55,170 nt of DNA from a candidate division FCPU426 bacterium (lineage in GTDB: Bacteria > Oederibacteriota > JAAXVQ01 > JAUVAV01). The notes under the pieces were generated by a model. It saw only the letters and a program-made list of their open reading frames with translations. It ran no database searches and was not told where the DNA came from. The translations under genes were made by a program, and so were the position numbers. The stretch covers positions 1-55,170 of the forward strand of contig DAOWGI010000034.1 in assembly GCA_030637655.1 (NCBI GenBank), written 5' to 3'. Positions 8,832 through 51,716 of this stretch are shown one piece after another; the first letter of the stretch is position 1; the number at the start of each line of letters is the position of its first letter.

Positions 8832-10247
8832 TTAATCCTCAATGTTTAAGCGTTTCATGGCTTGCGTTAATTGTTGATAATTATTAATGCCTATTGATCT
8901 GGCTGTCTTGGTCTTGTTTTTTTTGTTTTTTTCCAGGTGGTGTAGTAGGTAGCGTTTTTCTTTTTCATCAATCTCGACCTTTAATTGTTTTTTCAAATCC
9001 TGATACTCCAGTTCCAAATAATCAGCAGTCCCGGGAGGCTGTCCGATTTTTTCGTCACTATTTTCTGTTTCCGCTTCCATTTGCGTCACAAAGGATTGGA
9101 TGTCCTGCAGGGATATAATATTATCCAAAGAATTTTTAATCCCAACCTCTGTGCATTTTTTTAAATGCCGCACGTTACCTTCCCACTTCTGCTTTTGCAT
9201 CCATTCCATCACCTCCACCGAGGTCGCTTGGATGCGTTTTTGATACCTGGGATTTAACTCCTTGATAAAATGATCCACCAGCAAGGGAATGTCTTCCAGA
9301 TGATCGCGCAGCGGCGGAATGATCAAGACATGATTATACAAACGATAATATAAATCCTTGCGAAAGAATCCCTTGTCCACCATTTTTTTCAGATTGCGGT
9401 TGGTGGCTGCTAAGATGACAATATCCATTTTTATTTTTTCTGTGGATCCCACCCGGGTGATGATCTTATTCTCAAGCAAGGTCAACAATTTTGCTTGTTG
9501 TTCTAAAGGCAATTCACCAATTTCATTTAAAAACGCCACTCCGCCTTGCGTTTCCTCGATCAACCCCTTTTTGTTCCTCTGAGCACCACTGAAGGCTCCG
9601 GTCACATACCCAAACACTTCCGATTCAAATAGGTTCGGACTGATTTTGGTTAAATCAATTTCATAAAAGGGTTTAGCTTGGCGTTTGCTTAAGGCATGAA
9701 ACGACCGGGCCACCAGATCTTTGCCAGTGCCTGTTTCCCCTAGAATCATGGTGTCACATTCCGATTGAGCTGCCCACAAAATGTTTTTGGCAAGATTCAT
9801 AATCACCTTGCTCTTGCCGACAATTCTTTCCTCCCAAACCGGCAGGTCCTGATCCGGTGGTCCGTTTTTCTTGTGTAGATACCGTTTGACTTTTTCAACC
9901 AGACTTTTAAAATCCTCCACCGGTTTTACTTCAAAATCATTGGCACCGTTTTTTATCATTTCAATCAAGAGGCTGGTATCACCAACCCCGCTGATCACAA
10001 TGATGGGCAGCTCTTCCTGGGTCCATTTTTCCCGCAGCCGATTCAGTATCACGCAGCCGCTGCGGTCTCCGCCGTCCCCTTTTAAATCAACATCCAACAG
10101 CACCACATCCGGTTTGCAGGCACCGACCAATTCCAGGGAGTGCTTTTCATCATCAGCACATTCCACCTGAAACCCTTCCTGCTCAAAGACCTCTTTGTAG
10201 ACATTCGCAATATTTATGTTGTCATCCACAATCAACATATACGCCAT
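8832..10247 (-). CDS. NtrC/AtoC-family sigma54-dependent response regulator (REC-AAA+-HTH)
   Basis: REC domain (IVDD, LLDV, KP). Walker A GETGTGKD, GAFSGA loop, AATNRNL, FRKDLYYRL, WEGNVRHL, C-terminal Fis-like HTH. AAAGGAG RBS. Confidence 0.95.
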   Translation of the reverse strand: MAYMLIVDDNINIANVYKEVFEQEGFQVECADDEKHSLELVGACKPDVVLLDVDLKGDGGDRSGCVILNRLREKWTQEELPIIVISGVGDTSLLIEMIKNGANDFEVKPVEDFKSLVEKVKRYLHKKNGPPDQDLPVWEERIVGKSKVIMNLAKNILWAAQSECDTMILGETGTGKDLVARSFHALSKRQAKPFYEIDLTKISPNLFESEVFGYVTGAFSGAQRNKKGLIEETQGGVAFLNEIGELPLEQQAKLLTLLENKIITRVGSTEKIKMDIVILAATNRNLKKMVDKGFFRKDLYYRLYNHVLIIPPLRDHLEDIPLLVDHFIKELNPRYQKRIQATSVEVMEWMQKQKWEGNVRHLKKCTEVGIKNSLDNIISLQDIQSFVTQMEAETENSDEKIGQPPGTADYLELEYQDLKKQLKVEIDEKEKRYLLHHLEKNKKNKTKTARSIGINNYQQLTQAMKRLNIED

Positions 10248-10443
10248 GGTTGTCTGCTCCTTTACTCGCCGGTTTTCTCAGCCTGAACCAGAGGCAACTG
10301 AAAATAAAATGTCGGCCTTGCGTTTTTGAAATTCCTTCAACGCAAAGATCACCAGAGGAGGTTCCCCCTCGGTTATTTCAGGTGGCCCTCTAACGGTTTC
10401 TCTTCAGATTGTTTTTATCATGTCTTCACACCCAGCGAAACAA

Positions 10444-13400
10444 CTAATTGGTTTTTTTCTCTGCCAAACGCCAACGTCTTGTGAAGCCTCTAACTGCCAA
10501 TACCACTTTGAATTCCTCTAGTATTAAATAAAATCCCGGCAAGATAAACAGAGTCAACAAAGTTGAACTGAGCAGCCCTCCCATCACGGTAATCGCCAGC
10601 GGACTCCAAAGCACAGCAGATTCACCGCAATCCAGAGCCATAGGCAATAAGCCGAAAAGCGTCGTAGCGGTCGTCATAAAAATCGGGCGTATCCGCTGCC
10701 GGCCCGCCCAGATCACCAAGCGAGCTACCGCAATCTTCGGAAATTGTCGTTTCAATTTATTCATGCGATCAATCAATATTATGCCGTTGTTAACCACGAT
10801 TCCACCGAGCATGAGCATGCCGATCAATACGCCCAGGGTCACTGTGCTGTTGGTTACAACCAAGGCGGCAATGGCGCCAATCACAGACAACAACACCGTT
10901 ATCATGATAATGAAGGGCTGGCGCAGGGACTCGAACAAACACGCCAACACGATGAATATCAGAATAACGGTAAAGGTCAGGGCCTGCCAAAAACTGCGAT
11001 TGGCCTGTACCATATTTTCATAATCTCCGCCAATATCAGCATAATAGTCCTCCGGAAAAGTCATGCCGCGAATAATGGTCTGCACCGCTTGCGCGGCTGT
11101 TTCCAAGGGCAGCTTGCCTAAATTAGCGCTGACTTGAATCATCCGGCTTTTATTACGATGCCAAATTTCGCTGGGTGACAAGCCAAACCGCAAATCCGAA
11201 AAATGTTCCAGTGGTACGTGAAATCCTTTGGGAGAGGCCAGCATTAACATTTTTAATTGCGCTATGGTTTCGCATTGTTTCGGTTCCAATCGTACGATGG
11301 TCTCGATTTCTTCCTGTTGATCATAAAACGAGGTGGCATGCAAACCGCGCAATTGGGCGTGCACGGTTTCGCCGATATCCTGATTATCCAGGCCCATAAG
11401 GGCCACCCTTTTAGGCAGCAAGTGTACTTTGGCCTCCGGTCTGCCGGGGCGATACCTGACTTTTACATCGGACAAGGCTTCCACTTTTGACATTTTCGAG
11501 GCCATTTGCATGGCCAATTGAGCCAGAGTTTGATACTGGTAACCATAGAGTTCAACAAAAATCTCCTTGCCTTGCCGGGGTTCTGAAAAATAGATAAAAG
11601 CATCATGTTCCTCCCCGCCCTCCTCTAAACGCGGACGAAGATATTCAATAACCTCCTGCGTAGACCACGACCGCTGGGCGCGTGGTTTAAGGGTTACATA
11701 TATCTTGGAGGACCATCCTTCTACGCGGGAAGATACGTTCTTGAGCATCGGTTGTATCTTCTCCAGGCCGGCAATGCGTTTTTCAACCTCTTTTACCACT
11801 TGGTCTGAAATATCCAACCGAACTCCTGAGGGCAGCTCTACATAGATCGTAAATTCACTTTGTTCCGATGCGGCCAAAAAATCCTTCGGCAACTGTTTCT
11901 GAAAAATAAACAGGGCCCCCAGGAACAAGCAAAGAATCAGCAACGTCATTTTAAATTTATGCTGCAGAAGTATTCTCAAATACCAACGGTAATGTTTAAT
12001 CATCAGCAGGCTGGTGATTAAAAGCACGGCCACTGCCAAAACAAATACCGTTGCTCCCCAGTTGCTATGCACAACCAGACGGAGCAGCACAAGTCCCAAG
12101 ATCAACAGCACTCCTGCCACGTAGCACAACTTCCTTTTCAAAAATGCCACAATTTTTCCCAGGTAGGCCGCACTTTTCATCTGGAGCATTTCCAAAAACT
12201 GCGTCACACTTCCCCGCAGACTCTGGGCCGGCGGATTCGTTGCTGCTTCAATTGGCACGTAATAGGCCAGCGCCGGAATAAGCGCCAGCGCGGTAAATAG
12301 CGATGCCAACAAGGTCGTGGTCACTGTAAAAGCAATACCCGCATAGAGCAATTGCGTCTGCTTTTGTAAAAAGGAAAAAGGCAAAAAAACCGCAATCGTG
12401 GTCAGGGTTCCTCCGATCATGGGCATCATCATTTGTTTGGCCGCCTGTACCACACGTTCCGATTTGGACCAGGTGTGGTATTTTTTATGAAAGCGGTCAA
12501 TGTTCTCCAATACCACAATGGAATTATCCACGAGCAGACCAATGCCTAATACCAATCCGGAGAGCGAGATGACATTTAAAGCGACCTGTTCCAAGTACAT
12601 CATCACCAGTGTGATCAATAAAGAAACCGGAATGGAGCCGGCGACCATCAAGGCAGGACGGATATCCTTTTGCCAGACAGATACCCCCGACATCAGGACA
12701 AACACACTAATAATGATCACCAGGGTATTGGTCAGGGGAATCCGCCACAAATAAAATACCAGCAAATTAACGGTCAATCCCAGTATCAAGCCGACAGACA
12801 ACCAGCGGGTGATAACGGTTTTACTGAGAAAAAAACCCAAGATCAGCACCACCAAACACATGCCATAAAACAAGGTCATCTTCACCGCCCGAATGGCCTC
12901 CTGAATGCTCCGGCCTTGGTCCGCTACAGTAAATAATTGAATCTGCTCGTCCAATCCGTTCTCGAATTGAAGCAGAACCAGTTTAACGCGCTCCACTACA
13001 TGTACAACATTGGCCAGACTTTCCTTCTGGATATATAGGGTAACCGCTGATTTAGAATTCAATCTTGAATGAGTCTCCGCTTCCATAAAATCATCCTGAA
13101 CCACGGCGATATCCTGCAGACGAACCAGGCCTGCTTTATTGGTCACCGCAACACCGATTTGTTCTATTTCTCTGATTTCCTTGAACGCTCCTTGGGTTCT
13201 TAAACCGATCAGTTGTTCTGCCTGGTCCAGACTGCCAACCTGCATATTTAAATTGTTTTTCTCCAAGATACCAATGATTTGTTTTACGGAAAGCCCCAGG
13301 GCGACCAAGCGCCTTTTATCCAGATGCACCAATATCTTCCGTTCCCGGCCTCCGCCGATTTCTACATTGGCCACCCCCGGGATGCGCAGCAACCGATCCT

Positions 13401-13947
13401 TCAATCCCTCTTCCACCAGCTTACGCAGCTCTTCCGGTGAATGGCAAAGCGATGTCAGAGCGGCAATCACGACCGGCGCATCGGATTCTTCATAGTGTGC
13501 GATCACCGGTCGTTCAATCGATTTCGGCAATTCGCCTTTTACGCGCAAGAATTTTTCCCGGGTTTCCAAAGTTGCCAAATTCATATTGGTGCCAGGTTCA
13601 AATTCCAAGGTCACAATGGATTTGTGTTTTTTGGAGGTGGAAACAATATTTTTCAATTTTGATACCGTACTCATGGCTGCTTCCACCGGTTTGGTGATCA
13701 ATCGTTCCACTTCAGGAGGCGGCATACCTCCCCGTACGTTGATAAATATGGTGACTTGACCATAGCTGATATTCGGCATGAGCTCCATGGGCAATTGTCT
13801 TAATCCAACCAAACCCATTAAAATAAAAGCTGTCACGATCATACTCAATGCCACTGGCCGGCGAATACTGAACCCAGGCAAACGGCTCGCCACCATAAGC
13901 AACAAGAGCGCCACCCCGGCTATATGGATAAGTTGGTTTTCATTCAT
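10444..13947 (-). CDS. RND efflux permease (AcrB-like) with extra TM segments
   Basis: SIRRPVA N-terminus, GLLVDNSIVVLENI (TM4), GIVVNNGIILID (TM10), RIRPIFMTT. Start at ATG 13947 with a GAGGGA RBS, overlapping the upstream stop. Confidence 0.93.
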   Translation of the reverse strand: MNENQLIHIAGVALLLLMVASRLPGFSIRRPVALSMIVTAFILMGLVGLRQLPMELMPNISYGQVTIFINVRGGMPPPEVERLITKPVEAAMSTVSKLKNIVSTSKKHKSIVTLEFEPGTNMNLATLETREKFLRVKGELPKSIERPVIAHYEESDAPVVIAALTSLCHSPEELRKLVEEGLKDRLLRIPGVANVEIGGGRERKILVHLDKRRLVALGLSVKQIIGILEKNNLNMQVGSLDQAEQLIGLRTQGAFKEIREIEQIGVAVTNKAGLVRLQDIAVVQDDFMEAETHSRLNSKSAVTLYIQKESLANVVHVVERVKLVLLQFENGLDEQIQLFTVADQGRSIQEAIRAVKMTLFYGMCLVVLILGFFLSKTVITRWLSVGLILGLTVNLLVFYLWRIPLTNTLVIIISVFVLMSGVSVWQKDIRPALMVAGSIPVSLLITLVMMYLEQVALNVISLSGLVLGIGLLVDNSIVVLENIDRFHKKYHTWSKSERVVQAAKQMMMPMIGGTLTTIAVFLPFSFLQKQTQLLYAGIAFTVTTTLLASLFTALALIPALAYYVPIEAATNPPAQSLRGSVTQFLEMLQMKSAAYLGKIVAFLKRKLCYVAGVLLILGLVLLRLVVHSNWGATVFVLAVAVLLITSLLMIKHYRWYLRILLQHKFKMTLLILCLFLGALFIFQKQLPKDFLAASEQSEFTIYVELPSGVRLDISDQVVKEVEKRIAGLEKIQPMLKNVSSRVEGWSSKIYVTLKPRAQRSWSTQEVIEYLRPRLEEGGEEHDAFIYFSEPRQGKEIFVELYGYQYQTLAQLAMQMASKMSKVEALSDVKVRYRPGRPEAKVHLLPKRVALMGLDNQDIGETVHAQLRGLHATSFYDQQEEIETIVRLEPKQCETIAQLKMLMLASPKGFHVPLEHFSDLRFGLSPSEIWHRNKSRMIQVSANLGKLPLETAAQAVQTIIRGMTFPEDYYADIGGDYENMVQANRSFWQALTFTVILIFIVLACLFESLRQPFIIMITVLLSVIGAIAALVVTNSTVTLGVLIGMLMLGGIVVNNGIILIDRMNKLKRQFPKIAVARLVIWAGRQRIRPIFMTTATTLFGLLPMALDCGESAVLWSPLAITVMGGLLSSTLLTLFILPGFYLILEEFKVVLAVRGFTRRWRLAEKKTN

Positions 13948-19767: not shown

Positions 19768-19893
19768 TCATCTTCCTCGCATTTGGAATGAACCTGATGT
19801 AAACATGGTTTCAGTCATGGCGGAATATTTCAGTGCCGGCTGAATAGTACGCAAAACTGAAATTGTCAGAGCTGTTATTATTCGCCTACTCAT
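19768..19893 (-). CDS. 41-aa small ORF heading the TolC-RND operon
   Basis: MSRRIITALTISVLRTIQPALKYSAMTETMFTSGSFQMRGR*. Strong RBS (GGGGGAGTGAGGAA). Stop is 4 nt before the tolC ATG. Confidence 0.5.
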   Translation of the reverse strand: MSRRIITALTISVLRTIQPALKYSAMTETMFTSGSFQMRGR

Positions 19894-46800: not shown

Positions 46801-49800
46801 GGCACGGGTTATGGTGGTTTCTTCGCGTCCAATTTCCTGTCCCAGGCTATTGTAAATAATGTTCTGTACTTGGGTCTGGATCTGGGTTTTGCCAAGTTCC
46901 GGGTCTACAGTAATCTGCGTTTCTTTGTACGATATGAGATTACCCATACTGTTATAAACCATGGCCTGGCGAACCAGGGTTTGCTTGCTTTCAGGCTGGT
47001 CTGAGCGGAATACTGTCTCCTGATATCCCAGCATTTGGCCCCGGGCATTGTAGAGAATATTGGTACGCCTGGTTATGGTCTCTAAATAATATTCAGGCGC
47101 GCTGGGAGCACTTTTTCGAATCACTCTTTCCGTGAAACCGGTCAAATTAGCCATGGGATCATAACGCAAATCCTGCATCCACACTTCAGTCAAAAGATCC
47201 GGGGTTAGCGTGGAAGTACGGGTTTCGTGGTAGGACCTGACTTTATGCGCTTCAGCATAAGCAATGTGGTCGCGCACATAAGTTTCAATCTTATCCAGCT
47301 GACGGCCCTGTTCATCTTGACCATAGGTGTGGACAGTATCAGTGTACCCGATCACCCGGCCCAGAGCGTCGAACTGAGCGTGGTTGCGCACTGTATGCAT
47401 TGTCAAATCCATGACCACTTTAATTACTGTGGCTTGGCCGTCCTGCAAAGAAATTTGAATCTCACCTTCGGGTGTAGAAATGATCACACTCTCACCAGCG
47501 AGGAGTCGGGATTGTTGTTCTTCATCGATTTGATCCCATGTCCATTCCTTTGGCAATTCATCAGGATTTGACCCAAAGCTCAGTAATTTCATGCCAGTCA
47601 GCAGGCCGGCTGCCAGGTTTTCAATATCAGGCAATTCCTGGATACTCTCACCTTTTAGTTGCGTCAACTCATCTTGCGTGGCCATCCGGCCCAAGGAATC
47701 ATAGGTGATATCTTTCACATTTTTTTGGGTAACAAGATCCGGGGTGCGTGAATCTTGGGCGGTTTCTTTGTAGCCCAAGAGCTGGCCATAGCGGTTATAG
47801 CCCAGGCCTGAGCGCTCTACCCGGGTCTTGTTTCCTTGCCCCAGCCAATCGCCTAATAGGGGATTATAAGTAATACTCTCTAATACTTCGGACTTGACTT
47901 GATTGGCCGGCGTAAAGGATTTGGCCTGCCAAATGGTGCGCAGGTGTTCATCATTACCCTGGGTCTGGCAAGATTCCTCGAAATACACCATGCGGCCCAG
48001 TACATCATACTGCATGCTTGAGCGCTGACTGTTTTCAGACAGGTTCAGAGTCATAGACACTAAATGGTTGCCAACATCCAATTGAAGCAGGGCTTGCTCC
48101 TGCCAGGCAACAGCTTGCCCAGCCAGAAGCGCTGTCTGCTGCTCAGCGCTCAACTGCTCCCAGGAAATTCCCATTCCCAGGTTATTCACAATTTCCGCCA
48201 GCTGAGATTGTTGTTCGTCGGCATTCAAATCAGGCCAATTTTCCGGCAAAGTGTATTCACCCTGACTGCTGCGATGAGTCAGGGTTTGAGAAGAAACCAA
48301 TTGGCCCTGACCATTGTAGAGCAGGCCGGTTACTGTACGCAGGCTCACGCTGCCGGTCAAGCCTTGCTCCAATTCAACATAAGCAATTAATTGGCCGCGG
48401 CTGTTAAAGCATGCTTGGCTGCGCTCGCGGATCATGATCCCGGCCGGTGTGGCTTCGTCAAACACTTCTTCAATATACCCGATGGTCTGTCCCCGGGCAT
48501 TGCGCACTATATCATGGCGCGTAGTGATGATGGTGTGATCCAAGCCGGCTGCCAGGCTGCGGCGGATTTCCTGCCTGGAAAACGGCTGGATATCTCTCAC
48601 CTCCAGGCGTTCTTCTAAATCCACCCAAATACCAAAAGGATCTGTACCCAAGGTAGTGGTAATTTGGGTATACTGTTGCACTGCATTGGAAACCAGTATC
48701 ACATTCGCGTACTTTTTTTTGGTCTCAACCAAAACCTGCTGGTTGTCCCGGGTTTGCCCTGCAGTGCGAATGACCTCTTCTCCTCCGCAGACTTCCTGAA
48801 AACGATCATATCTCCTGCCCTTTACTTCAGTTGAAATGAGCACACCCGGATGATCACTTCCTCTGCTCTCCTGCTGATAACCGCTCAACCTTCCAAAGGG
48901 ATCGTAAACTCCATTGTGCCAGTGGGTCTCTATAACCACCTGGTTTAAATCCGTGACCACTTCGTGATAGGAAATACGCTGATGATACTGATTGTAAACT
49001 GCGTCTACTTGCTCGCAACGCGACTCATTGCCGGCGCTGTCGGAAAATGTTTCTTCGACGCTGAGCAACCGGCCCAGGACATCATACTCAGCCTTACGCC
49101 ACTGATGCTTGGCCACGACATTGTCTGCGTATTGCCAGGTCTCTTGGTACTCAATCAAGCGGTCATAAGAATCATACTCGGCCCCTTCCCAAATACGGCT
49201 CACGACTGATTTATCCGGACTAATCACTTCCTCCTGATAGCTGGTAATATTGCCGAAACCATCATACCGGGCAGCCTGCCAATGACGCGTGGACTTTTGG
49301 CCATAGACATCCGTCATTTCCTCCTGAAAGGCGGTCACTAGGCCGAATTTATTGTAGGCAGCCAACCCCGAAGCCTGCAAATCCGCTTGCCAATTAACAC
49401 TGGTTTCATTTCCAAATTGATCCTGACGTATCTCCTGATAACCAGCCAAATGATCTACACCATCATAGGCGGCGTTGAACCACTGACGTTCAGAACGATT
49501 GCCCAGAATATCAATCTTGATTTCGTGATACTCCTGGAGACGATTGTATTGATCATAGCCGCAATTTTGCCAATACCGCCGGCTTTGATTGCCAAAAGGA
49601 TCCGTATTGATTTCACAAAATGAAATGAGCTGATCATAGCGGTTCAATTCCACCTCACCCCAACTCCGGCTGCGCTGATACCCAAAAGCATCTATCGTAT
49701 GTTCTGTGTAAGCAAGCAACCGTCCGAATTGGTCGTACGCCGCCTTTTCCCGGCAGAGAGAGGATTTCAGCCCATGGACATCGGTGTTATGATCCTGATA

Positions 49801-51174
49801 GCTCAGGATATCTCCCACTTGGTTGTAGGTGATGGCACAACGTTCAGTACGGCTTGTCTTGCCAAAGGCATTCACTCTGGTCTCTTGAAATCCCAGCAAG
49901 CGATGCTTATGACTGTACTGCGCCTGGTCAAATATGACGCTGGTACAAGTACCGTCAATATGTGTTGTTTCCTCCTGGGAGTGCAGCAAGCGGCCATACT
50001 TATCATAGCGTCCTTGGCTCCAGGCAACCTGTTTTTCCCGGCCTAATGCGTCCCTATGTTTTTCCAGGTAACTCAGCAATTGGCCGTATTGATCATAGCT
50101 TCCCTGTTGCCATTCCCTCACAGACTGATTTCCAAGCGCATCTGTGATTCTTTCGGTGTACGCTGTTAATAAATACTCTGTGGCAATTTGTGCTTCCCCG
50201 CGTTTTTCTTTGGCCTTGCTGTAAGCAGGATTCTTAATATACCGGGCACCCAACCAATGCCGCTGCGTGCGATTCTGTTGGGCGCCAATCACTGTCTCTT
50301 GATATTCCTGCAGTTGTTTATTCTCATCGTAGCGGGCTCCATACCAATGCTTAACATTTTTATTGCCCCGTTCATTGGTAAAGATCTCATCATACTGGAC
50401 CAATAATTTCCCCTCGTACCGGCCGTTGGACCATTCTGACTTGGTCTTGTTCCCAAAGGCATCCGTGCTCTCCTGCACATAACTGGTTACCAATTTATTG
50501 GCGTTGGTATCATCATTGGCGTAAAAAACCGAGTCTTTGGTATAGGTGGCGCCGGACCACTTGACATGGGTAAGATTGCCCAGGGAATCCAATGTGTCCG
50601 CTTCATAGCTGGTCAGCAACCGCTTGCTATTGTATTCCAGGTTATAGGTATTTTTAAGAGAGACATTTCCCTGCGGGTCAATAATTTTTTCATTCTCAAT
50701 AAGCACTGCCAAGCCGTCTTGAAACCAGATGCATTTGCCGTCGTCATATTGGACATAGTTGAATTTGGCATTCTGGCCTGTGATGGCAAATATCTTCTGC
50801 TTGGCCATTTGCAGGGAGCGTTCCATTTGCTTCACGCTTTGTTGTTGCTCCAACACTCCCTGCTCGATGTTCTGTCTGTTTTTGCCGGTCAGTTTCCCTT
50901 GCTGGTACGACAAAGATTCTTCTTTGCGGTTTTGATAGTCAACTATTGCCTGCTGCTTTTCCATTTGTTCTTTGATATAGACCGGACTGAAATATCCGGT
51001 CTTTTTGCGATCTTGAAAAGCCCGCACCTTGACATTAGCAGACGATTTGACATAGGCCGCAATCGCTTCTGTTGCCGGCGCCACAGTTCCGGTATAACCC
51101 ATCACAGCGGATAGTACCATGGCCATACTTTTACGCAGAAAACGCCTGGTTGGTTGTGTTAGTTTTATTCGCAT
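22804..51174 (-). CDS. Giant (~9,456 aa) secreted YD-like repeat protein with candidate C-terminal toxin/effector domains
   Basis: Uninterrupted 28.4-kb ORF. Start MRIKL at 51174 with an AAGGGGG RBS. Signal-peptide-like N-terminus, very many Y(D/N)xxG(R/Q)xxxYxE repeats, hydrophobic segments, terminal LVAHG...LAACKTG domain. Confidence 0.9.
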   Translation of the reverse strand: MRIKLTQPTRRFLRKSMAMVLSAVMGYTGTVAPATEAIAAYVKSSANVKVRAFQDRKKTGYFSPVYIKEQMEKQQAIVDYQNRKEESLSYQQGKLTGKNRQNIEQGVLEQQQSVKQMERSLQMAKQKIFAITGQNAKFNYVQYDDGKCIWFQDGLAVLIENEKIIDPQGNVSLKNTYNLEYNSKRLLTSYEADTLDSLGNLTHVKWSGATYTKDSVFYANDDTNANKLVTSYVQESTDAFGNKTKSEWSNGRYEGKLLVQYDEIFTNERGNKNVKHWYGARYDENKQLQEYQETVIGAQQNRTQRHWLGARYIKNPAYSKAKEKRGEAQIATEYLLTAYTERITDALGNQSVREWQQGSYDQYGQLLSYLEKHRDALGREKQVAWSQGRYDKYGRLLHSQEETTHIDGTCTSVIFDQAQYSHKHRLLGFQETRVNAFGKTSRTERCAITYNQVGDILSYQDHNTDVHGLKSSLCREKAAYDQFGRLLAYTEHTIDAFGYQRSRSWGEVELNRYDQLISFCEINTDPFGNQSRRYWQNCGYDQYNRLQEYHEIKIDILGNRSERQWFNAAYDGVDHLAGYQEIRQDQFGNETSVNWQADLQASGLAAYNKFGLVTAFQEEMTDVYGQKSTRHWQAARYDGFGNITSYQEEVISPDKSVVSRIWEGAEYDSYDRLIEYQETWQYADNVVAKHQWRKAEYDVLGRLLSVEETFSDSAGNESRCEQVDAVYNQYHQRISYHEVVTDLNQVVIETHWHNGVYDPFGRLSGYQQESRGSDHPGVLISTEVKGRRYDRFQEVCGGEEVIRTAGQTRDNQQVLVETKKKYANVILVSNAVQQYTQITTTLGTDPFGIWVDLEERLEVRDIQPFSRQEIRRSLAAGLDHTIITTRHDIVRNARGQTIGYIEEVFDEATPAGIMIRERSQACFNSRGQLIAYVELEQGLTGSVSLRTVTGLLYNGQGQLVSSQTLTHRSSQGEYTLPENWPDLNADEQQSQLAEIVNNLGMGISWEQLSAEQQTALLAGQAVAWQEQALLQLDVGNHLVSMTLNLSENSQRSSMQYDVLGRMVYFEESCQTQGNDEHLRTIWQAKSFTPANQVKSEVLESITYNPLLGDWLGQGNKTRVERSGLGYNRYGQLLGYKETAQDSRTPDLVTQKNVKDITYDSLGRMATQDELTQLKGESIQELPDIENLAAGLLTGMKLLSFGSNPDELPKEWTWDQIDEEQQSRLLAGESVIISTPEGEIQISLQDGQATVIKVVMDLTMHTVRNHAQFDALGRVIGYTDTVHTYGQDEQGRQLDKIETYVRDHIAYAEAHKVRSYHETRTSTLTPDLLTEVWMQDLRYDPMANLTGFTERVIRKSAPSAPEYYLETITRRTNILYNARGQMLGYQETVFRSDQPESKQTLVRQAMVYNSMGNLISYKETQITVDPELGKTQIQTQVQNIIYNSLGQEIGREETTITRAWNLLQELILEQVRKTQISDVLYNGLNQKIFSMEKHETEGNAAVTTVIFGRATYNLLGQLEGFRQITRNQAEKDSGNLNHTQRLERTQTGYNTLGQVTETTEIINSSDAPAKTVTEHTSEITYTPAGLKYSYSKQIREISTGSLPLDITTLITRKATTYCNGLATAYEEETLKRGTWTNPDNGEIEVLAEFTNVKRKDIVCSAGRQVLAYHEDNSGNGIAGGSKTVDWQGAYDLQGRNTQSQEIVDDGVMVSTTTREVAEFDELGRALSESQSVNSRSHVLDAEQKPLQNITTKVNRLDLQYDDQGRLLGYQEQSQSSERPGVLNTIQRLYATYDQLGRQNAYQEKIVSVGFDETGSIAPDLFTEKLITRAYTSYNGLSRVLEYEDEILYSDRDVGETITRSDVSYDDVGRVKTYYEKIREQDTQGKELDRVTETWREATEYADARGRLTQYIEKRISSDQPELEKTITWTATDFDQADRVKDYTQQTVVNNIKGAEYSLITTLKRSDIQYDQQNREIKYSQNEYSTDAPDLVIHTDRTLTKYNNFGQVIAFEEKVERYDAQNPRNMRISTQVSRSDIQYNLSGWENSYHEESVSSQAPNLITTTDWSQAVYNRLGQIEQFQQKVRQQGKDEEGNALGVVITTTRTVTEYNDQGQVTAQIEELASSAQSQVTTTETLSDVTYNGRGQRETYNKTITKVSEDGKLFQKTSIEREQTAYDAFGRELSYTENRNSSDAPDVNTEINWIALDFDGLGRVSAYQEDVTRIGRKAAGAEVLQTVVSTLRTNILYQDQGHLLSYQEEVDSTAEGHISRDWQVLHYNLLGQLTGYQETGHKPDRGNYTYLWEASFDEFGQVDSLHENLQTDNGSMDYDQHRAGTTYNNKGQVIGCTETGWTVNQPSYTKIWDASFEEAYTLSGQQQHYQEVFTNDLGVTTEKEWSQAEYNALGQLIRYVERLRETAAGVRDMQIIRTWEAHYDDAYNMAGQLAHYEETKTTEYYNPQTGELLESIPSRVIWQAGEYIAGLIQEFTEQTIHYLGLPEEYTSTYTRLDMDYDASGHLQAYFETGNGPATGQYEKNWQVLGFDANGREMGYVTNGYSQASGVNNNLMRENIVYDSHGRILAYHEKGIADGKYIDRQWSSEPENYDVLGRILAFTENGWNESGRYEKSQSKIVYNHLSCLKSYVENGWNITEGNYVKIVSNLTYDEKGRRLSYHQVLEQEDQEKITTTDWQVISPQGYNDKGQLLGYTETSTVHDPAGVLQEEVSIEWLADFKDSYTDLGQLLRFISTTQKISPDFGTRTVIQKRSHSRFQADGRLQSYHEAITNKIENEGLTQESTIASIRSGIEYYGQTENSPDEGETWSNQIPPNGSQPPATDELWRHEGMIAAYQELILGTNAEEKPVQHIFQAVNFDQDGRQLGYLEVNADEDLAAGILRRFSEWLSEVQNGFPVALTEEWILQTLEIANLLVFDTLGIIRKIQNWMAENISGFTDEIRNIVTNLLSTISNLLFQTADAFDNLLAELTTNLTLSPFVSFVENLSMAVETRLIASLQTTLPAWTAADTAYAKLHPFDYTVTITQRRDTVYDELNRPIAWQEETRSSAAPDKITISDVNVTYEGKTQRYATYAARLVEGEKITHLYRNDYAYNPLDQAVAYKETVFEGDILEINGVETDWRTLAIADRSRLINNLVDEVQEVKELVTINCYENVTYNAIQQMTGYDLTTHRRGFTFQAFSEAAIMAESLTQQQEMIEKQEEVVAEQQALFQQAQDAWQAAYSNLAVPYFGSDLPDRNDPAAVMQEITLRLQAKFVDEATQENNVDAAREALDAAFQFLNDKTSALVEAVNALAIVENQWRQAIHQQDQLITDIKNWAGTDYANLHTAIDNLKTYYQVYASADYAQAAADLESIRSTITNVLGNWDAGNVGAPWPDTLGIGMDSIDAFLTEESSVQTLMQQALDLKDALALFCDSCQTIAENIDQQIGWLDGGQPALAGGLCDQFDQALVAKGIAKNEYNTAVGIRNAAQGEADSLLAKLNNLNNAWTSISGQLDDEVDVVKSLVNAFETESQNVADNLCDISYADWVGPNGTYSYSGATMRRYDVTSTVMSQYDDTPAWGIHYTWLVFPNCPNQSELDHTHHDFSTYYYSESYVVKPKSIFNGKPSEFDKRNIVEPIIQDYRDAKSALDREVQDKYDPLKDKVHTLLELTTNEINALAGLLADDYKIQVQALYTTKEQQKYQAYVDQLNTIPPLQTVVDQKFNEWQSAISVHLAAKTALDVAITVCQDAYDSLNLITSLKDRALANYEGDLGIAVTGTELLDTANTETTAKDRYLQARIEHDDAYNQVHGVSGKKPLYDQAVTDLLNAGQDRQAGQDILETMVSVQKGIQAAQADLQIEIEMLRQINQDSQELSIRISEELFGNAFLLDGQGFNLTAQQAQTLSQGKAINLGEDYDLARLSQQAEIKVNAGQNLTASRRNITYEKRGLLDRYQEISFTGTQVRVKAKTGDDWQVIEWLDLAEEQKQEVLQQEPEALMVEILGSGSLKITEAQNHAHDARGRMTGNQVIVHETRYQDTEKVKRTYTVTTKDMDYDNQGNMSKYIRTKAEGIRTIVESTLQALQYDEFDRLIESHLLIEETVGHVDTSKEIHTTGMKYNHLDQMTGFVRETCENAKWIFEKTLSAMRYNLQNQVEFSDMLILETRESEGLTAGDFAVMADRAAAQEAFGEQGKVTRVITRDMQYDARGQAISLFRTIIDNEKRTEEDVREMVYNGERLIHSKSKVQETGFPAANGETHLYYRSYEIEIDNLEYDQSEQVTRQRKLTRDGNKVTTEDLTMEYEDPEGRMTYAFNSISEKYGDLPVHQYTVETTIHSYNDENQVARQTRIIVDGRKQITESNQDTLATTVFAYYAGRRQRREIQVIEASLGNPPDANPYTKVYKLTEENMVYDSLGQLLYCRRIRETHDQGTTNYVQEETTYTYNTRGQLRESAMVRTSHSGDIAEGKTNTMVTRIPLSGYDDSNQMERFSNIIFQGDTLGYRGEERRWQELSEADKDNLTHGRFKETLNKSVAVNSMGQVKYDDHGRLQDWIGTMRVLGPVTTALGELLEATFAGKSFGPEGAAEQIIRQNKIEAFDRTLGLGTILVANGGASMEIAAKALSDNEKIGLIDLAGLNLDATDQVVLNGSEYNLTACSIRLPIDATSVTVRKDTQYNTLGQVSDYKEFTFAGKGLVLNGKYTVWDALSESRQQELIGIWELAGQEEWIEMDAAYADDLPNNFVTLVHMQNIRYSGQGDRETWKQTEQELQLYLKDSLRPDSETGNIRLAVNRNSGTERLETALRDINGEKKEIGIHQINTSSNGLETEEWIFFKYDDKGRASELLKLRWRANEEQWVAEYTEVLDYKQVSNRDVFGMIATTTGFDVSLTQGLLDSSLSQADFQGFANALFDRPDFREAGQTLAYQESTNARVETDLMEFRYELDGTNPRTSQTIRIHTDAKNISTVEDTYYYYAYKGDSKPTYTRSIKANQPAYSVETYLENPDDADSERKRIAYNPPTTLVGAENRPVQSIEDASLLYDSRGILKSSDVIRLDVGGVMTRELTKFTYDYGRVKHSDKKIWQDIGGSFEQPDLTTERPDDVEGLPIDFKVYAGGGQMFREETDYTYTGSEVTHSEIKRTEISGQVVREINDFEYNTSTGELISSVNKVYEGDFYWKQTSRENMQYYAAGTADAGFLESYTETITASATCEGIINHKRTVNNVTQVEYDNLGRLESRHTTVTNYTVIAGQTKSAAYSMTLQAGAIVAGTIYEGYDWMGRMANYTQTITKGSKTTTESIHQVFSQADGRLDGMYRFIHEEGGNLDHTYQRNSQYGYSAGTQLPAREITTTTDNHRTTRENITYLAYNEQQQLEKKRDLINVYDQTDLLYSYNVDTTYTSYNKQGLPDEYTTLTIRGGKKTEQKITASYNEHDQVIGQTSANKEVLAGVSEMDYCREWTEALTNVAYNDLGQQIEFTQTRTERDKQITETCTDLDYNEVGQITHKVSDFVEKDVPANGGEYYRAYTLTMDNHAYNDLGQVLRYSRTMEHKDETDKVVKISTETCLADIQYAAEERVLLTNVEIKEKDHGFILDGTELDYTYTLRTENEYDSATGQVSGYTRTHTRGDKETKEKAVFLTYDRYGRLAYSNVTVHEQDVTKTLPLNKKYSVITAYNDYNLLDQARSYTKISQENQGQHEVIEQASGLTYDLRGNLTHSLVQRDENGTAGTVETENGYNDLDQAITVKRVSIQDDLVTIEQNVGGTKLEYSQDNQMEASSLAYRQIDLATAQTHDFNVLSTDTMGAEVNQYYTVDSSEMTYNSIGQLIEYLRVTTDANKTTTEETLEDCDYDSAGQLVYSKTEWTESGNSTYGNLDHTYIVTMENMVYNSQGKMEDYQQTTEDASKTTIEMVSGMLYDQGRLVHKYSEITEQGDVGTGALNHTYTLDTTNTEFDNYGRIRAYTQTTLDAGRTLVETVSDQQYDSQNRLQQYVKDTLDGGKLIHEETLTDIQYEELGRIQQINMSRSIKDQKTKGSELSLYSETLTENLLFDQLGRVTEYRLTTDEYTKTHPSTGPPTNKTKTVVEHATSVAYNDLHQITETQTSYTETSTQPSETIQPEECPQAVEINGLGKTYSVTTINRKFTFLGKVAQMTRTTTHGNHVIEEYSLVDQTYDDYNRVQAFSNRITESGGNLDSQYTLIHSIDEFNELDQILRETKVIAKQDITITETSLLDNEYDTSNRLIWSKKQITETGGLFNLNHVYKQVTEVKEYNSLGQARQREIKKYDDNGAINKITTVNQNSMVYNSLGQLFSYNQTLHDTDWTQGALDTKFIINRAWTLYNSLGQPESYYEYHRKDASQAESYADLNPTEYTLYQAVGGQPVVNVSIQDVLSSPDMPGLAGKRIYEILYNLLEPAIADALADEGYTGISLADALLDVMSALLGYFSENSITFSGIDNEEIPLRYLTPADILYLLIGDSWGAYETAVVADEQVLDIFTLTITGLASIDAEVRDTVGTGGRILLNLTLQDVLTEILKQAFLNFPGKPAALDEAAAQNLAAGLLAGDTFLDSLGNNLLDLTLQEIYDLHLANTDYATEDEVSPVMISFGTLIQKLIFQQPDESDMRVIFSQVFGSTLSGFQDSTNTLNLGVITFGDMLKHVFDPSAADLTTAVSNRLLAIFSNYAEFVTVWYQVDNIKYDELGRVVRMEEQRKWNQAGGGNLPGLDSGWRNAIAYVTTEKEYVGDSDLIETQAVRATHETGIHSDLGNNPDINLGYIQTDIVYDQYGRELESRSFSSQLAKYEFQWLDPTHFLWWETSSSMGEPEDVITIVGTITYTSTSSFNQLGQPTNVLTEYRRDDGNRTEGMELSQNITYHRNGSRRDAWTYTTVVMSLPKHDNAQWYNYDWQTTLDWMSTWTLENSAGLTFANHSQNQYRAMNRDSNQWTHPSHGLTEYAYDAYGNMDAEGTKDKSDITHVSTQPEGVGMTVFGEILYWTMTLGEIVVSVIGTIFPIFKPFAILINFGSNLVKNYIAGMDFSTSLGLAALNAGVSIVGFGIGEIAANISNAILQVVVQVASSIALSVTNQLIQTAILKGDEGDYGEAALRGLLYGAAGALMQSNIGMVTKMILVTAINVGAAMASGVKDGRQLLLVAAISIGMVAFTESNPATGPPRESNNTQLPTWQDITRIFVSALVAMALATLLEEMGLGFTGQLAAALVMQVALKITSTIVKDVNTSQSTMAQQRQTLAQLNQISQAFNAGLKQGLSMNIKKHHEINIFIYKTGKGAKPVEQQIKEQKEAMEEAAEGQMYFEQFVLEAVVDYSSAVMDLTMDIFAYGYDLFQNVFADNTPNVLDNQDNQNLIMASASGNLNMRITARGEAQAGEGGALLFSEKENREKLSSAQRNAIIESLITAKSELDTLSKAEINEMGNFLTKQGIDFDAVINAEVNGQEMALFFKDDILVAAGMLGAGGQKEIRTFNFRFGEDGKVLVAAGKIFRHIDGKYREVGSFRYAAKNSKEYQQAMSRTEEIIQNSAALEKIKSADAIYTEKDTVGKMTRQVYLKVDDQGNALALASEHRTNDGQMQLLTYEYDNLEEGVLAKGRIFEMNDGSYGEKAAGQFSIQNIQGLAQLSGVGQQVVQALQAGGMSRVVYQAQMEMGASREVSMNKETGQLEYVYEKKNGKQRLVMFAENAGAALRDRPDIAGVQVVNFNDLGKDEQTQILASLPVMDKRDPAALTAKLVRMQENLMQAKLQKFAEAQGFKLEVEDSQIFMQLPGNKNLQVLRLGEDKGENLVIEGRLVMQDEDGMKAIGAEVFLAGADSKFAGELLCATELDTGKLPGGSTLMATVNEKETQVVVLNANQQVIAGTQHTVASQVLNQAVYNLKSQSKQGNGSLPGYLNTGLASIAALANQAGSAITGLIDEVINVRVVEEHKLDDGSVLKGKISLNQDGSIQEIAPGTIKQVSFAENQVSEDGKLWKAQLFEWDGEQFILIEGVRVEQKVGNYEVLGESGVDVYMIVSPEGQEFVVGVNWGSLSEGVQIKEMTSGLILEKKGGSFKLAGNQKGTIQYDDQQITIDLNAKGQMQQPAGIKVFLDGKERNFKLLALEANLASGGWQLKGQVILKDREKLNVAQAAVWLSREPTAGATQQKGSAKAGYEPATQAHMYQKQDGDYVFFGGKVGMVINTEIQEDQSQMMKNHQVAFGKGSHLTITGKTGLPALKIKVFVGQLRNTRNGWQWGSGTIYQRGQEIKLAAGKNGEFKVKQIKGEGFKAVIHELSMLANLLVTLKKGITIDLSIDYKNGKADLVDGRYHGNFVTGNRNIQLHGKDAIAEVENLSLLVKDNSVAVNFIQFGIYEGETLMLGEMGLRQNGCQKSISIIFNENGSIADLTLPTGIMTKSQDGTLMVWVYDGQGKYPAVIINDKGVYDQYGFEKLPTIISEKTNSGRVETRSGEKYTLELPTEESAGLIEMLKQDGRVLMGQDGVYAHPGDMGFEKQMLESLGPLKDMQGNSWPAIKQIPVGGPNSTYTKAETFYPVGSVKDHTGDALASGLKVASYSILRLQDAIIGSVGSEIVSEKNEGAWVDTWGGEYHKHEREMLKNQYILGTEIANAHDPIKIATWEERAATALTGGLAGFVLFIPTLTGLTQPSEQWGKGAGRTVLKNLKTTGEGFVHMFTQLPGNLMNDPASGLADTGLAVLVVVGITRGVKGIVDGIKIRSLPPDIQMNIAKMQPGVRIKLGLKTLTLTKSMIKTAQAQVLKGTGLKAGEFSLAREKVRVELIRDAIKQKYAHLTEAQVKSIARHVVKLSKGKSYIQIMKEGRNLGLNKQQVSMVRHIFKDYVRTGKAPYQLALIRAKNTAADQYNQAVSRTIEPAGNRVFRHTITADMPQASAARVMHEGALNLSKGHKAQYGEGVYAWEAGAKKVGKYIDFKVDPTTAAEKIVTKNGQTFYRLVPRHGKQLKIDIFDSNFTPAELSLGRKLAGIKSIDPVNYKVGETMPNGRLAGDGPGAQINLNLTKAMKSSLEIPENCKMVKQADSYVVYRTSENNLRIRFKADKAVTLGEATSGRNYTTETLAGVNEAGKVFVHEGRHRAIGAAQGDAISKANGGVPERPGYLDFEYSPEIVKEKGVSVKDLKIDYTKPDIHDPAIADKIWEDKFMPKTVNPQERILPQNQPLQRRPSQIDALPKIKHNHAKITRGPPKETGSKENGKSLRDQPESKTKGQTDLGEEGSPIQTLKSEIQKLELKVRLTRSQAENLPAGPAKQRLLQKTGEYQARALEAQRQLNKLENTTLSHQPQVQSQTVSAAQNQGPRILNGEPSDQLVMRSAQAMGTKTGYKVESIHAANLRGVEEVTLVAHGVWPSGQSAAQWVRLKGLGNVNPEVLARILVEDLHWTGGTLRLAACKTGLKSVSFKSFGDQLAIELAKRLNQPTVVITPKGNINMVLSDSFGLPRVMSVENNQIYPLGLKYWEYSIADKNGLIKP
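42158..42187. repeat. Perfect 30-bp GTAG-type palindrome inside the giant CDS
   Basis: TGTAGAGACGCGATTAATCGCGTCTCTACA is its own reverse complement. It reads VETRLIASLQ in frame. Confidence 0.9.
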
Positions 51175-51197: not shown

Positions 51198-51563
51198 CTA
51201 TAGGATTGCAGGATTAAGAATTTCTGTGATCAAATTCATATCATACGGTTTCTTAATAAACCGTTTGGCTTGATACTTTTTCATCAAATGCACAACTTCC
51301 TCAGTGTATTCCCAGTGAATCAGGATTGCGACTGTCTCCAGCTCCCTACACGCATTGAATTGATCTATTTCCTCTTGCCCATTTTTAATGGTTTCCACAT
51401 CAATAAAAATAAATTTAAAATGATGACTGCAGAGGACATTAGCTAAAAGGTCGTGCTGCGTGCTTAAAAATACTCTGTTGAATCCACACATATTCAAATT
51501 TTCTTTCAGTATTTCTGCAAAAACCAGGTTTATGTCTAGAATCAAAATATTCTCATTCAACAT
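51198..51563 (-). CDS. Stand-alone atypical receiver (REC) domain protein
   Basis: ILILD...FIFID...ILIH...FIKKPY receiver pattern. ATG 51563 has an AGAGG RBS. The track start (51620) lies inside the sigma54 promoter. Confidence 0.75.
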   Translation of the reverse strand: MLNENILILDINLVFAEILKENLNMCGFNRVFLSTQHDLLANVLCSHHFKFIFIDVETIKNGQEEIDQFNACRELETVAILIHWEYTEEVVHLMKKYQAKRFIKKPYDMNLITEILNPAIL

Positions 51564-51603: not shown

Positions 51604-51620
51604 AGCACAATTCGTGCCAA
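51604..51620 (-). promoter_or_regulatory. sigma54 -24/-12 promoter (REC gene plus giant gene)
   Basis: TTGGCACGAATTGTGCT has a perfect -24 box and GG-N10-GC. Confidence 0.8.
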
Positions 51621-51680
51621 ATATTTTTTTTAAAATTGGGGGTTTTGCGTTACTTTCAGGTGCAATGAGAGGAATTAATC

Positions 51681-51716
51681 AGAAGTCCGGGATTATAATA
51701 AGAAGCAGAGACTTTT
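51681..51716. promoter_or_regulatory. Putative tandem UAS sites
   Basis: AGAAGTC-cg-GGATTAT (51681) and AGAAGCA-ga-GACTTTT (51701), 20 bp apart. TAATCAGAAGTC at 51676 is identical to the 12-mer at 20047. Confidence 0.55.

Follow-up and report, generated by a model that had tools for sequence, protein, structure and literature searches.

An antiparallel beta-hairpin meander underlies teneurins, Tc B-C shells and Rhs/YD toxins (PDB 8uxt, 8qja, 7q97, 9ifo, 4igl), and in Rhs/YD polymorphic toxins enzyme tips that vary at the C-terminus, some of ART-HYD1 or ParB type, are joined to a body that is conserved; the accessible part of a survey of these toxins (PMC3482391) makes no mention of RND or TolC. 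In type I secretion (LapA via LapEBC, MARTX/RTX) a giant repeat cargo is found beside TolC and a periplasmic adaptor (MFP). The accessible part of PMC8277102 describes how MacAB-TolC exports the Sec-delivered enterotoxin STII, a small peptide, from the periplasm, and how Dispatched, an RND-family protein, exports Hedgehog. MdtABC and MuxABC (PMC7015380) carry two tandem RND genes from an old duplication together with an MFP and an outer-membrane factor. In related uncultured phyla, the giant genes of Omnitrophota (10.1101/2023.11.21.568195; 10.64898/2026.06.07.730766) encode mostly multi-pass, multi-enzyme proteins with predicted tube-like antiparallel beta-helix regions that have been likened to Rhs; these genes are flanked by T2SS/pilus genes, and the main texts of both reports mention neither RND nor AcrB. 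A literature search covering few subscription journals and, of the two Omnitrophota reports, the main texts found no bacterial RND described as a large-protein exporter, nor any report that connects giant-protein export with RND-TolC. Annotation treats nearly every RND as a drug pump, and a protein-handling clade, if true, would be a new secretion route and would correct many annotations.

We analyzed a 55,170-nt contig stretch (the window) of an uncultured FCPU426 bacterium in which a 9,456-residue toxin-like protein adjoins a two-subunit efflux-pump-type (RND) machine. The gene content proposed in the initial annotation was borne out in full, as follows.

51198..51563, minus strand: single-domain response regulator (REC), 121 aa, with homologues in relatives
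22804..51174, minus strand: the giant, 9,456 aa, an unannotated, polymorphic-toxin-like family by family scans and homologues
22726..22788, unstranded: 63-bp dispersed repeat, ~20 genome copies, not locus-specific
20937..22538, minus strand: secreted Trp-rich repeat (propeller-type) protein with PT linker and CHU_C/T9SS-like tail
20468..20689, minus strand: 73-aa orphan with a strong ribosome-binding site
20071..20297, unstranded: ~215-bp dispersed repeat (MITE-like), at least 15 genome copies
19768..19893, minus strand: 41-aa sORF heading the export operon
18255..19763, minus strand: TolC-family outer-membrane factor (PF02321)
17137..18258, minus strand: RND periplasmic adaptor (MFP; TIGR01730, above cut-off)
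13940..17140, minus strand: RND subunit A, A clade (ACR_tran, PF00873)
10444..13947, minus strand: RND subunit B, B clade (ACR_tran, PF00873)
8832..10247, minus strand: NtrC-type sigma54 activator (REC-AAA-HTH, GAFSGA loop)

The shared orientation of these genes was likewise seen, but it is uninformative and was dropped as evidence: every one of the contig's 14 long ORFs lies on the minus strand, rpoB, rpoC and pfl among them. The length of the giant is counted from an ATG with a ribosome-binding site and becomes 9,463 aa from the first ATG. The operon holds a full RND tripartite set (two PF00873 proteins with the adaptor and PF02321 factor). In sister loci the position of the sORF is taken by a 96-101-aa membrane-anchored protein ending V(Q/E)xINR(L/M/F)N, an ending that the 41-aa product does not have. 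The 73-aa orphan, a candidate immunity protein or regulator, has no homologue in the 98 other genomes of the phylum, and the propeller-type protein has five paralogues in the genome. Rfam gave no match inside the locus, and scans for sigma70 promoters and terminators stayed at chance level.

The architecture of the giant can be read as a leader, a helical head, two meander blocks and an enzyme-like tail.

51076..51174, minus strand: Sec-type leader (basic stretch, hydrophobic stretch, A-x-A), read by eye
50770..50985, minus strand: 72-residue N-terminal helix, residues 71-142, from the model
42526..50763, minus strand: first beta-meander block, antiparallel hairpins of 30-residue period (residues 41-700 modelled, rest by motif density)
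39616..41595, minus strand: Ala/Gln-rich block of ~660 residues lacking hairpin motifs, probably coiled-coil (by eye and composition)
32146..39498, minus strand: second beta-meander block, by motif density
29581..30270, minus strand: hydrophobic Gly/Ala-rich helical block directly after the last hairpins, a candidate membrane-translocation or anchor segment
24316..24627, minus strand: ADP-ribosyltransferase-like domain, a lead (ESM Atlas 0.89 to Tox-ART-HYD1; H and Y-G-x-G-V-Y motifs)
23821..24108, minus strand: ParB-fold-like domain (EGRHR), with a homologue at an Rhs protein tip
22831..23298, minus strand: C80/caspase-like cysteine peptidase domain, a lead (Atlas 0.85; His and Cys motifs)

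The position of the leader is conserved across giant homologues, as is a G(Y/F)xSP-like motif immediately before the 72-residue helix. How closely does this protein resemble the known shells? The AlphaFold model of residues 41-700 is a continuous beta-meander (pLDDT 91) whose best Foldseek matches are Rhs, teneurin and Tc-BC shells (E down to 1e-17), while whole-model superposition on these shells gives TM of at most 0.20 and rmsd of 17-28 Å for the 660 of ~5,000 meander residues that were modelled. VIA-align returned generic barrel-level matches only (Z at most 11.6, rmsd ~10), which argue for neither kinship nor a new fold. The giant differs from Rhs, Tc and teneurin proteins in its 30-residue period, in its ~5,000 residues of meander and in lacking the PxxxxDPxG aspartyl autocleavage motif of Rhs, and the best Pfam score for a YD/RHS repeat (RHS_repeat, E 3.7) falls below cut-off. 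Neither Pfam at cut-off nor NCBIfam (two ends scanned) matched the giant, and the same holds for Pfam/NCBIfam cut-off matches on 17 giant-family members, two tip homologues and the tip of the C8 paralogue. A single-sequence fold of the last 630 residues reached pLDDT 41. Unlike the Omnitrophota giants, this protein has toxin-like tips and few hydrophobic segments.

The description of the giant as a toxin fared well, in that a conserved body is joined to variable tips. Identity to the C8 paralogue lies at 27-49% as far as residue 8,000 and at 12-15% beyond it, and the tips of 14 family members are mostly unrelated. Homologues carry PF15520 and PF08808, which we take to be Ntox10 and RES, and P0130, a homologue of the ParB-fold-like domain, forms the tip of an Rhs protein. 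The family looks like an unannotated polymorphic-toxin-like one with swappable, enzyme-like tips, judging from sequence, and the ART-, ParB- and C80-like identities are leads. The multi-effector tail with its C80-like peptidase (lead) presumably also resembles MARTX. The energizer here differs from that of type I secretion, being an RND pair rather than an ABC transporter, and the cargo has an N-terminal Sec leader; no ABC transporter gene was found among the 13 locus proteins scanned or beside sister operons. No T6SS sheath gene was found in the genome.

The Asp of TM4 and the Arg/Thr motif of TM11, residues that we take to have a functional role, are retained in both RND subunits, and RND-B is longer by ~130 residues, with an N-terminal extension and hydrophobic insertions. 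In a phylogeny with four characterized reference pumps, each subunit groups in a clade of its own (A or B), to which AcrB, MdtBC and CusA (21-25% identity) do not belong. The A and B clades are sisters (100/100 SH-aLRT), and the branching around this locus matches between them. Scores against the MdtC equivalog are 342 and 387 bits, for a cut-off of 1,774. The pair is thus distinguished from MdtABC/MuxABC as an independent duplication with separate clades, 23-25% identity and NCBIfam scores far below cut-offs; in the family, moreover, subunit B is extended by hydrophobic segments or fused to TPR, the operon starts with a small membrane protein, and the neighbors are giant proteins. A sister A/B paralogue is present in 15 of the 15 genomes of the order, and this genome has a third, housekeeping A/B pair besides its two giant-linked pump copies. 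A search for RNDs among plasmids gave five weak matches only. The A/B pump as a general PorV/CTD translocon was ruled out, with PorV-like genes in 99 of 99 genomes of the phylum and B-type RND in 15 of 99.

A fundamental question is whether pump and giant recur together. The initial annotation had asked whether the RND subunits recur beside genes over 5,000 aa, and with an ORF threshold of at least 2,000 aa the pairing does recur, both in the family and in metagenomes; contrary to the refuting pattern that it had set out, the RND pair lies outside the characterized drug pumps and repeatedly beside giant genes. All five f1-family loci that carry an RND-B orthologue (58-62% identity; G000:C20, G000:C8, G023, G024, G028) have a homologous giant next to the operon, in three of them as the neighboring gene. 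Seven of the ten other f1 genomes match neither the RND-B orthologue nor the giant head. Two related genomes, G021 (99% complete) and G020 (84%), have the orthologue yet no giant-head match by protein or profile. A compact giant-family member occurs in G016 (80% complete), a genome whose search gave no B-type RND. Among metagenome loci, chosen by two peptide patterns and with flanks of at most 10 kb, 15 of the 24 RND-B loci with at least 6 kb downstream have an ORF of at least 2,000 aa there (nine co-oriented within 1.1 kb, six with convergent giants of other families), and 9 have no large ORF. Grouped at 60% identity, 8 of 12 groups have a large ORF and 6 of 12 a co-oriented one, against a background in the giant-rich genome studied here of 33/860 genes (3.8%), or 20/860 (2.3%) for a co-oriented next gene, a rate from one genome set against related loci that are not independent. 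Giants of this same family stand at 5 of 66 metagenome RND-B loci; the other neighbors belong to several unrelated families, and the N-terminal profile of the giant finds no significant match among the other-family giants beside RND-B (best domain E 0.007). For three of eight full-length giant homologues the longest contig has the same size as that of an RND-B-TPR fusion, and in one such pair of giant homologue and fusion the accession numbers are 4 apart. None of the 14 sister A/B loci examined has a giant, nor any ORF >1,095 aa. The contig of G021 ends 2.4 kb downstream of RND-B.

We favor, at a probability of roughly 0.4, a reading in which two modules have been joined, and the giant is an Rhs-like toxin or surface weapon deployed by a dedicated TolC-MFP-RND(A)-RND(B) machine, in which the pump itself would move or tether the polypeptide. 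Sec would take the chain into the periplasm (the leader is seen), after which the heteromeric, probably proton-driven RND pair could engage the conserved N-terminal head and feed or hold the unfolded chain in TolC, a Sec-then-TolC routing like that of STII. Outside the cell, one hairpin of the giant after another would fold, building up a long tube or shell of beta-meander in keeping with the modelled local fold, and the hydrophobic block and a self-processing peptidase may deliver swappable ART-/ParB-like tips to a competitor or prey. Complex prediction gave a weak putative contact between the RND-B periplasmic halves and the giant head (0.32, from runs of 0.42, 0.12 and 0.32, versus 0.00 for the best control), with contact agreement of at least 36% and partner pLDDT of at least 60; of 157 solved pairs 116 attain the mark used, as do 2 of 215 mismatched ones, although at values of at most 0.60 only 18 solved pairs and both mismatches do so. 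Rather unlikely in our judgment is the wider proposition that the A/B RND-MFP-TolC family of Elusimicrobiota, Omnitrophota and this lineage is an undescribed two-step, proton-driven secretion system, in which the N-terminal helical head is recognized, Sec-exported giant beta-meander proteins are threaded or tethered through TolC, and cognate copies stand beside each giant toxin.

An alternative hypothesis, which is tentative but quite conceivable, keeps the same module and has the pump transport some small partner, be it a lipid, a glycan carrier, a cofactor or a substrate of self-protective efflux, or act only as scaffold or energizer, with the giant leaving by a secretin (T2SS-like) or PorV-type route. 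The characterized bacterial tripartite RNDs all carry small molecules (accessible part of PMC8277102). The TM4 and TM11 residues are kept in both subunits, the several unrelated giant families fit a shared accessory need, sister pairs adjoin PorV-like genes in 11 of 14 loci, and the genome offers other possible exits in two secretins (type IV pilus, Tad) and 48 PorV-like barrels. However, the five family loci have no biosynthetic or modifying enzyme that is kept alongside the module, and each of two giants has its own pump copy despite the third, housekeeping A/B pair, an arrangement that fits recognition of a cognate protein better than it fits a small substrate in common.

A dedicated machine could also serve a giant that is mainly an adhesin or surface filament, or is anchored in the producer's membrane by its hydrophobic block, its tips not being delivered toxins. 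We consider this improbable, even though the tip assignments are sub-threshold leads, the Rhs cleavage motif is absent, family members of ~600 aa end with meander and no tip, no recognizable immunity gene follows the giant (the downstream genes match no known family), and the Omnitrophota giants have been portrayed as proteins for adhesion or degradation that are anchored in the membrane; against it stand tips that vary over a conserved body, the tip domain that caps an Rhs protein elsewhere, and the PF15520 and PF08808 homologues. Least probable of all is a lack of any functional link, in which pumps and giants both gather in variable envelope islands and are co-inherited. ORFs of at least 2,000 aa make up 12% of the genome (35 ORFs, 399 kb), dispersed repeats lie inside the locus and some RND-B orthologues have no giant, but such clustering contends with the low background rates given above and with a pairing that has outlasted rearrangement (the giant lies upstream in this locus and downstream in others), a duplication inside one genome and a switch to another type of promoter.

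The dedicated-machine reading would make the paired-RND clade a specific, recurrent exit candidate for the 5,000-100,000-residue proteins of giant-gene-rich uncultured bacteria, and the comparisons hint at an RND pump family that may have giant proteins, not drugs, as what it moves or holds. With the compact members of ~600 aa and the modelled 660-residue head, export could be tested in a laboratory strain. Should the pump turn out not to move polypeptide, there would still be a giant polymorphic-toxin family, so far unannotated, whose envelope partner is conserved.

We propose that giant and RND machine form an ancient, recurrent module, and that activator-sigma54-REC control is a local addition, based on the following elements.

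51681..51716, minus strand: two degenerate activator palindromes of promoter 1, at -97 and -77
51604..51619, minus strand: sigma54 -24/-12 promoter 1 (REC and giant)
20847..20862, minus strand: perfect activator palindrome of promoter 2, at -118
20729..20744, minus strand: sigma54 promoter 2
20032..20067, minus strand: tandem activator palindromes of promoter 3, at -118 and -98
19934..19949, minus strand: sigma54 promoter 3 (export operon)

All three claimed sigma54 promoters were recovered as strict sites (51619, 20744, 19949), out of 22 in the entire 3.28-Mb genome, for an expectation of 0.37 per 55 kb; rpoN is present. The palindrome said to be common to them is present, at promoters 2 and 3 as the sole 0- and 1-mismatch genome copies of AGAAGTC-NN-GACTTCT, upstream of each, and at promoter 1 in degenerate form, as no more than two copies with 3 mismatches. 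The best-scoring palindromes reach 10, 12 and 12 of 12 at the three promoters versus at most 9 at the other 19 sigma54 sites, a partly circular comparison because the motif was derived from the same three sites; 10 of 3,000 random 170-mers reach a score of 10. A similar palindrome at -100 adjoins two of five homologous activators in relatives, and the palindrome is not enriched genome-wide in five relatives. From these motifs, the local activator, whose loop reads GAFSGA instead of GAFTGA and which is one of 10 AAA matches in the genome, may bind at and control all three units.

The term self-contained sigma54 system could not be kept: no histidine kinase lies in the locus or beside the activator, the cassette is also seen where giant and pump are absent, and in sister loci the promoters are of another type. 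REC homologues in relatives stand directly behind an NtrC-type activator in five of five cases, and the activator-promoter-REC(-propeller) cassette, to which the Trp-rich repeat protein belongs, is found in four family genomes with neither giant nor RND-B orthologue. The regulator is of separate origin from the giant-pump module, and a family-wide cassette for secreted proteins would have taken over all three transcription units here. The other giant and RND loci have no adjoining activator and no sigma54 site before operon or giant. Instead, these loci have in common a TG(A/C)AAG-N17-GTC(T/A)AA-type promoter motif, and operon and giant are each preceded by a similar motif in G000:C8, G023 and G028.

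The window is the whole of contig C20 of the source genome G000 (3.28 Mb, 92% complete), and every gene that the initial annotation had listed was found in it, in a locus flanked by the pfl operon and rpoBC. The features needed here are as follows.

8832-10247 (-): NtrC-type activator
19949 (-): sigma54 promoter 3, serving the pump operon (TolC, MFP, RND-A, RND-B)
20744 (-): sigma54 promoter 2, upstream of a 73-aa ORF
22804-51174 (-): 9,456-aa toxin-like giant protein
51619 (-): sigma54 promoter 1, serving the REC gene and the giant

Orthologues of RND-B (58-62% identity) occur at 7 loci among the 99 genomes of the phylum. All five that belong to family f1 adjoin a homologous giant (the window, G000:C8, G023, G024 and G028), which is the recurrent neighbourhood that the initial annotation had proposed to look for, and neither RND-B orthologue nor giant was matched in 7 of the 10 other f1 genomes. 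Counting against the link, the f2 genomes with RND-B (G020, 84% complete, and G021, 99%) gave no match to the giant family. A metagenome scan with the RND-B alignment yielded 66 loci, 42 of which were excluded for having less than 6 kb downstream. An ORF of at least 2,000 aa lies downstream in 15 of the 24 kept (9 co-oriented within 1.1 kb, 6 convergent), and 9 are without one; grouped at 60% identity, the loci form 12 groups, of which 8 are positive and 6 co-oriented. The background in the source genome, where ORFs of at least 2,000 aa take up 12% of the DNA, is 33/860, or 20/860 for co-oriented cases, and the binomial tails of 2e-9 and 1e-7 are overstated because this background is a single genome and kin are not independent. 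The giant belongs to the window's own family in 5 of the 66 metagenome loci, the others being of different giant families. Three of eight full-length giant homologues lie on contigs of the same size as one bearing an RND-B-TPR fusion (one such pair being giant homologue P0005, MCG3205432, and fusion P0054, MCG3205428), and further relatives are labelled Elusimicrobiota and Omnitrophota.

A second complete copy of the module occupies G000:C8:1-36900 (loci L017, L037 and L185). It consists of a 96-aa membrane protein, TolC, MFP, RND-A and RND-B, together with a giant that exceeds 8,532 aa and differs in its tip, and its promoter motif is non-sigma54. Each of the 15 genomes of the order has a sister A/B pair; none of the 14 loci examined shows an ORF above 1,095 aa, and in 11 of them a PorV-OmpA gene precedes the pair. 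This conserved, order-wide operon (L107-L120) runs PorV-OmpA, MFP, RND-A, RND-B, a long TolC (575-777 aa) and then threonine-synthesis genes, with no giant nearby. The association therefore holds strongly for this branch without being a trait of the whole A/B family: no giant lies at the sister-pair loci examined, and a compact giant-family member occurs in G016, which gave no match to a B-type RND. The pairing is real and recurrent, and apparently undescribed: a giant, Rhs-like polymorphic protein family goes together with a dedicated, heteromeric branch of RND-TolC. Literature searches brought up no paper on such a pairing of RND-TolC with giant proteins, the bioRxiv papers being covered by their main texts. 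The main text of 10.1101/2023.11.21.568195, in which Rhs-like beta-helix tubes and T2SS-like flanks are reported, contains neither RND nor AcrB; RND, AcrB and TolC are absent from the text covered of 10.64898/2026.06.07.730766, and RND and TolC from that of PMC3482391.

How is the pairing controlled? The three strict sigma54 sites of the window were confirmed, against 0.37 expected at its size from a whole-genome scan with 22 such sites in total, and rpoN is encoded. The common palindrome described for all three promoters holds for promoters 2 and 3, which have, 118 bp upstream, the genome's only 0- and 1-mismatch copies of AGAAGTC-NN-GACTTCT; promoter 1 has two 3-mismatch copies only. Scores at promoters 1-3 are 10, 12 and 12 of 12, the other 19 sigma54 sites reach at most 9, and 10 of 3,000 random stretches reach 10, the motif having been defined on the same sites that were then scored. 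Of 5 relatives scored, 2 have a similar palindrome at position -100 relative to sigma54 sites that adjoin homologous activators (G026, 11/12; G025:C91, 10/12); the remaining three reach 8/12. The genes do share one strand, but this is uninformative because every one of the contig's 14 long ORFs does so.

The view of the locus as a self-contained sigma54 system is not supported by its relatives: the four sister giant-pump loci have no adjoining activator, and neither their operons nor their giants are preceded by a sigma54 site. Both units have a motif of the type TG(A/C)AAG-N17-GTC(T/A)AA ahead of them in C8 and G023; in G028 it precedes the operon, and the giants of G028 and G024 show near-matches upstream. 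It is common in the source genome (42 matches, over half intergenic). A putative alternative-sigma promoter motif, A-rich and then TG(C/A)AAGGA-N15-GTCTAA, was noted at G000:C8 36917 and 26022, at ~20 other intergenic sites, and in G023, G024 and G028. In relatives, each of the five REC homologues stands behind an NtrC-type activator, and these REC-activator cassettes occur in four genomes with neither giant nor RND-B orthologue; G025:C110 carries, in this order, the activator (56% identity), a sigma54 site, REC, the propeller homologue and PorV. Because the cassette occurs without giant and pump, and sister modules lack such sigma54 sites, the window locus is a fusion of regulatory cassette and giant-pump module, and sigma54 control of the pairing is locally acquired. 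A kinase-like gene precedes the activator in four of the five relatives' cassettes, the fifth contig beginning inside the activator, and none precedes it in the window. The cassette-type histidine kinase at G000:C49:2653-7789 is a candidate partner; its contig has no activator, and it adjoins a PorV-like gene and a propeller paralogue. Family-wide, a kinase-activator-sigma54-REC-(ECF-like sigma) cassette heads clusters of genes for secreted tail-domain proteins and PorV-like proteins (L179-L182, L135).

The giant has no family match at cut-off. Its Sec-type leader was read by eye and is conserved in position, and a hairpin-turn motif occurs in 89 copies against 7.5 ± 2.7 in shuffles, mostly spaced 30-35 residues apart and in two long blocks. 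The AlphaFold model of residues 41-700 (pLDDT 91, pTM 0.81, 85 sequences) predicts a helix of 72 residues and then an uninterrupted antiparallel beta-meander. Its top Foldseek matches are Rhs, teneurin and Tc-BC shells, with E down to 1e-17. Yet TM does not exceed 0.20, at an rmsd of 17-28 Å, so what the model shows to be shared is the local element rather than the overall shape. The Rhs cleavage motif had no match in the giant.

The last hairpins are followed by a hydrophobic block and then a variable tail. In 500-residue steps, identity to the C8 paralogue is 27-49% as far as residue 8,000 and 12-15% beyond, and the tails of 14 family members are mostly unrelated. Giant homologues carry PF15520 (Ntox10) and PF08808 (RES). 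Leads for the tail are a candidate Tox-ART-HYD1 domain (Atlas 0.89), a candidate C80-like peptidase (Atlas 0.85) and a candidate ParB-like domain, which also caps an Rhs protein; the DGHHR motif is described in PMC3482391. At E ≤0.001 the family numbers 160 representatives, many compact (~600 aa) and tailless. Compact secreted members of ~550-650 aa have leader, helix and meander, with no tip and no Pfam match, and suit experiments as models:

P0172, P0174, P0176, P0177, P0182, P0190, P0196, P0200 (proteins) and L036:1373-2200: compact giant-family members

The giant homologue at G023:C5 (L027:1-9731) changes reading frame near residue 2,900, through either a real break or an assembly error, and extends past the end of the contig.

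The NCBIfam cut-offs for drug and metal pumps all lie far above the scores of RND-A and RND-B, which share 21-25% identity with AcrB, MdtB, MdtC and CusA. The initial annotation had suggested seeking a dedicated clade; in a quick tree of 47 rows with 4 characterised references, A and B form two sister clades apart from characterised pumps (100/100 SH-aLRT), with matching branching around the window locus. The pair arose by duplication independent of MdtBC, which has its own, separate duplication. Several variants were seen. RND-B carries a C-terminal TPR fusion in P0054, P0074, P0076, P0077, P0094, P0096 and L081:11590-16035; in one lineage (L047-L073, e.g. L053:7013-9801) an FtsH-like AAA/M41 protease and a 318-aa gene stand between RND-A and RND-B; TolC has very long extensions in L071:1699-4938, L097:3-5036 and L080:734-2869, one AMIN-like by eye; and the giant downstream of RND-B at L097:13836-23132 includes both an OEP-like stretch and a peptidoglycan-binding domain. 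A conserved 95-101-aa single-pass membrane protein ending V(Q/E)xINR(L/M/F)N immediately precedes TolC at 4 loci; in this position the window has only a 41-aa ORF:

L028/L027 (G023), L024 (G028), L081:5636-5935, L026:31-318 and G000:C8: small membrane protein

How would the giant leave the cell? RND pumps collect substrate in the periplasm. The Sec leader would bring the giant to this site of uptake, from which it may cross the narrow channel unfolded, the meander then folding hairpin by hairpin; the 72-residue helix (~108 Å) could serve as signal or tether. Complex prediction of the RND-B periplasmic halves with giant residues 41-230 gave 0.32 against 0.00 for the best control, a weak value from a job unlike the calibration; the runs gave 0.42, 0.12 and 0.32, with contact agreement of at least 36% and partner pLDDT of at least 60. 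In the calibration, 116 of the 157 solved and 2 of the 215 mismatched pairs attained the mark; those that did so at ≤0.60 were just 18 solved pairs along with the two mismatches. We tentatively favor direct handling of the giant by the pump, with a probability of roughly 40%; direct export, if shown, would make the system categorically new. It is also quite possible that the pump acts indirectly and the giant exits by a secretin or PorV route, for which speak two secretins and 48 PorV-like genes in the genome and the finding of no T6SS sheath gene there. A giant that is a non-toxic adhesin appears improbable. Joint control of pump and giant persists under two promoter types, which would itself support a functional link. 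Mere co-location of the two is unlikely.

Three further elements of the window were noted, the riboswitch being ordinary:

22726-22788: dispersed 63-bp repeat, ~20 copies, inside the locus
~20071-20297: second dispersed repeat family, ~215 bp, at least 15 copies, inside the locus
54898-54983 (-): ZMP/ZTP riboswitch upstream of pyruvate formate-lyase
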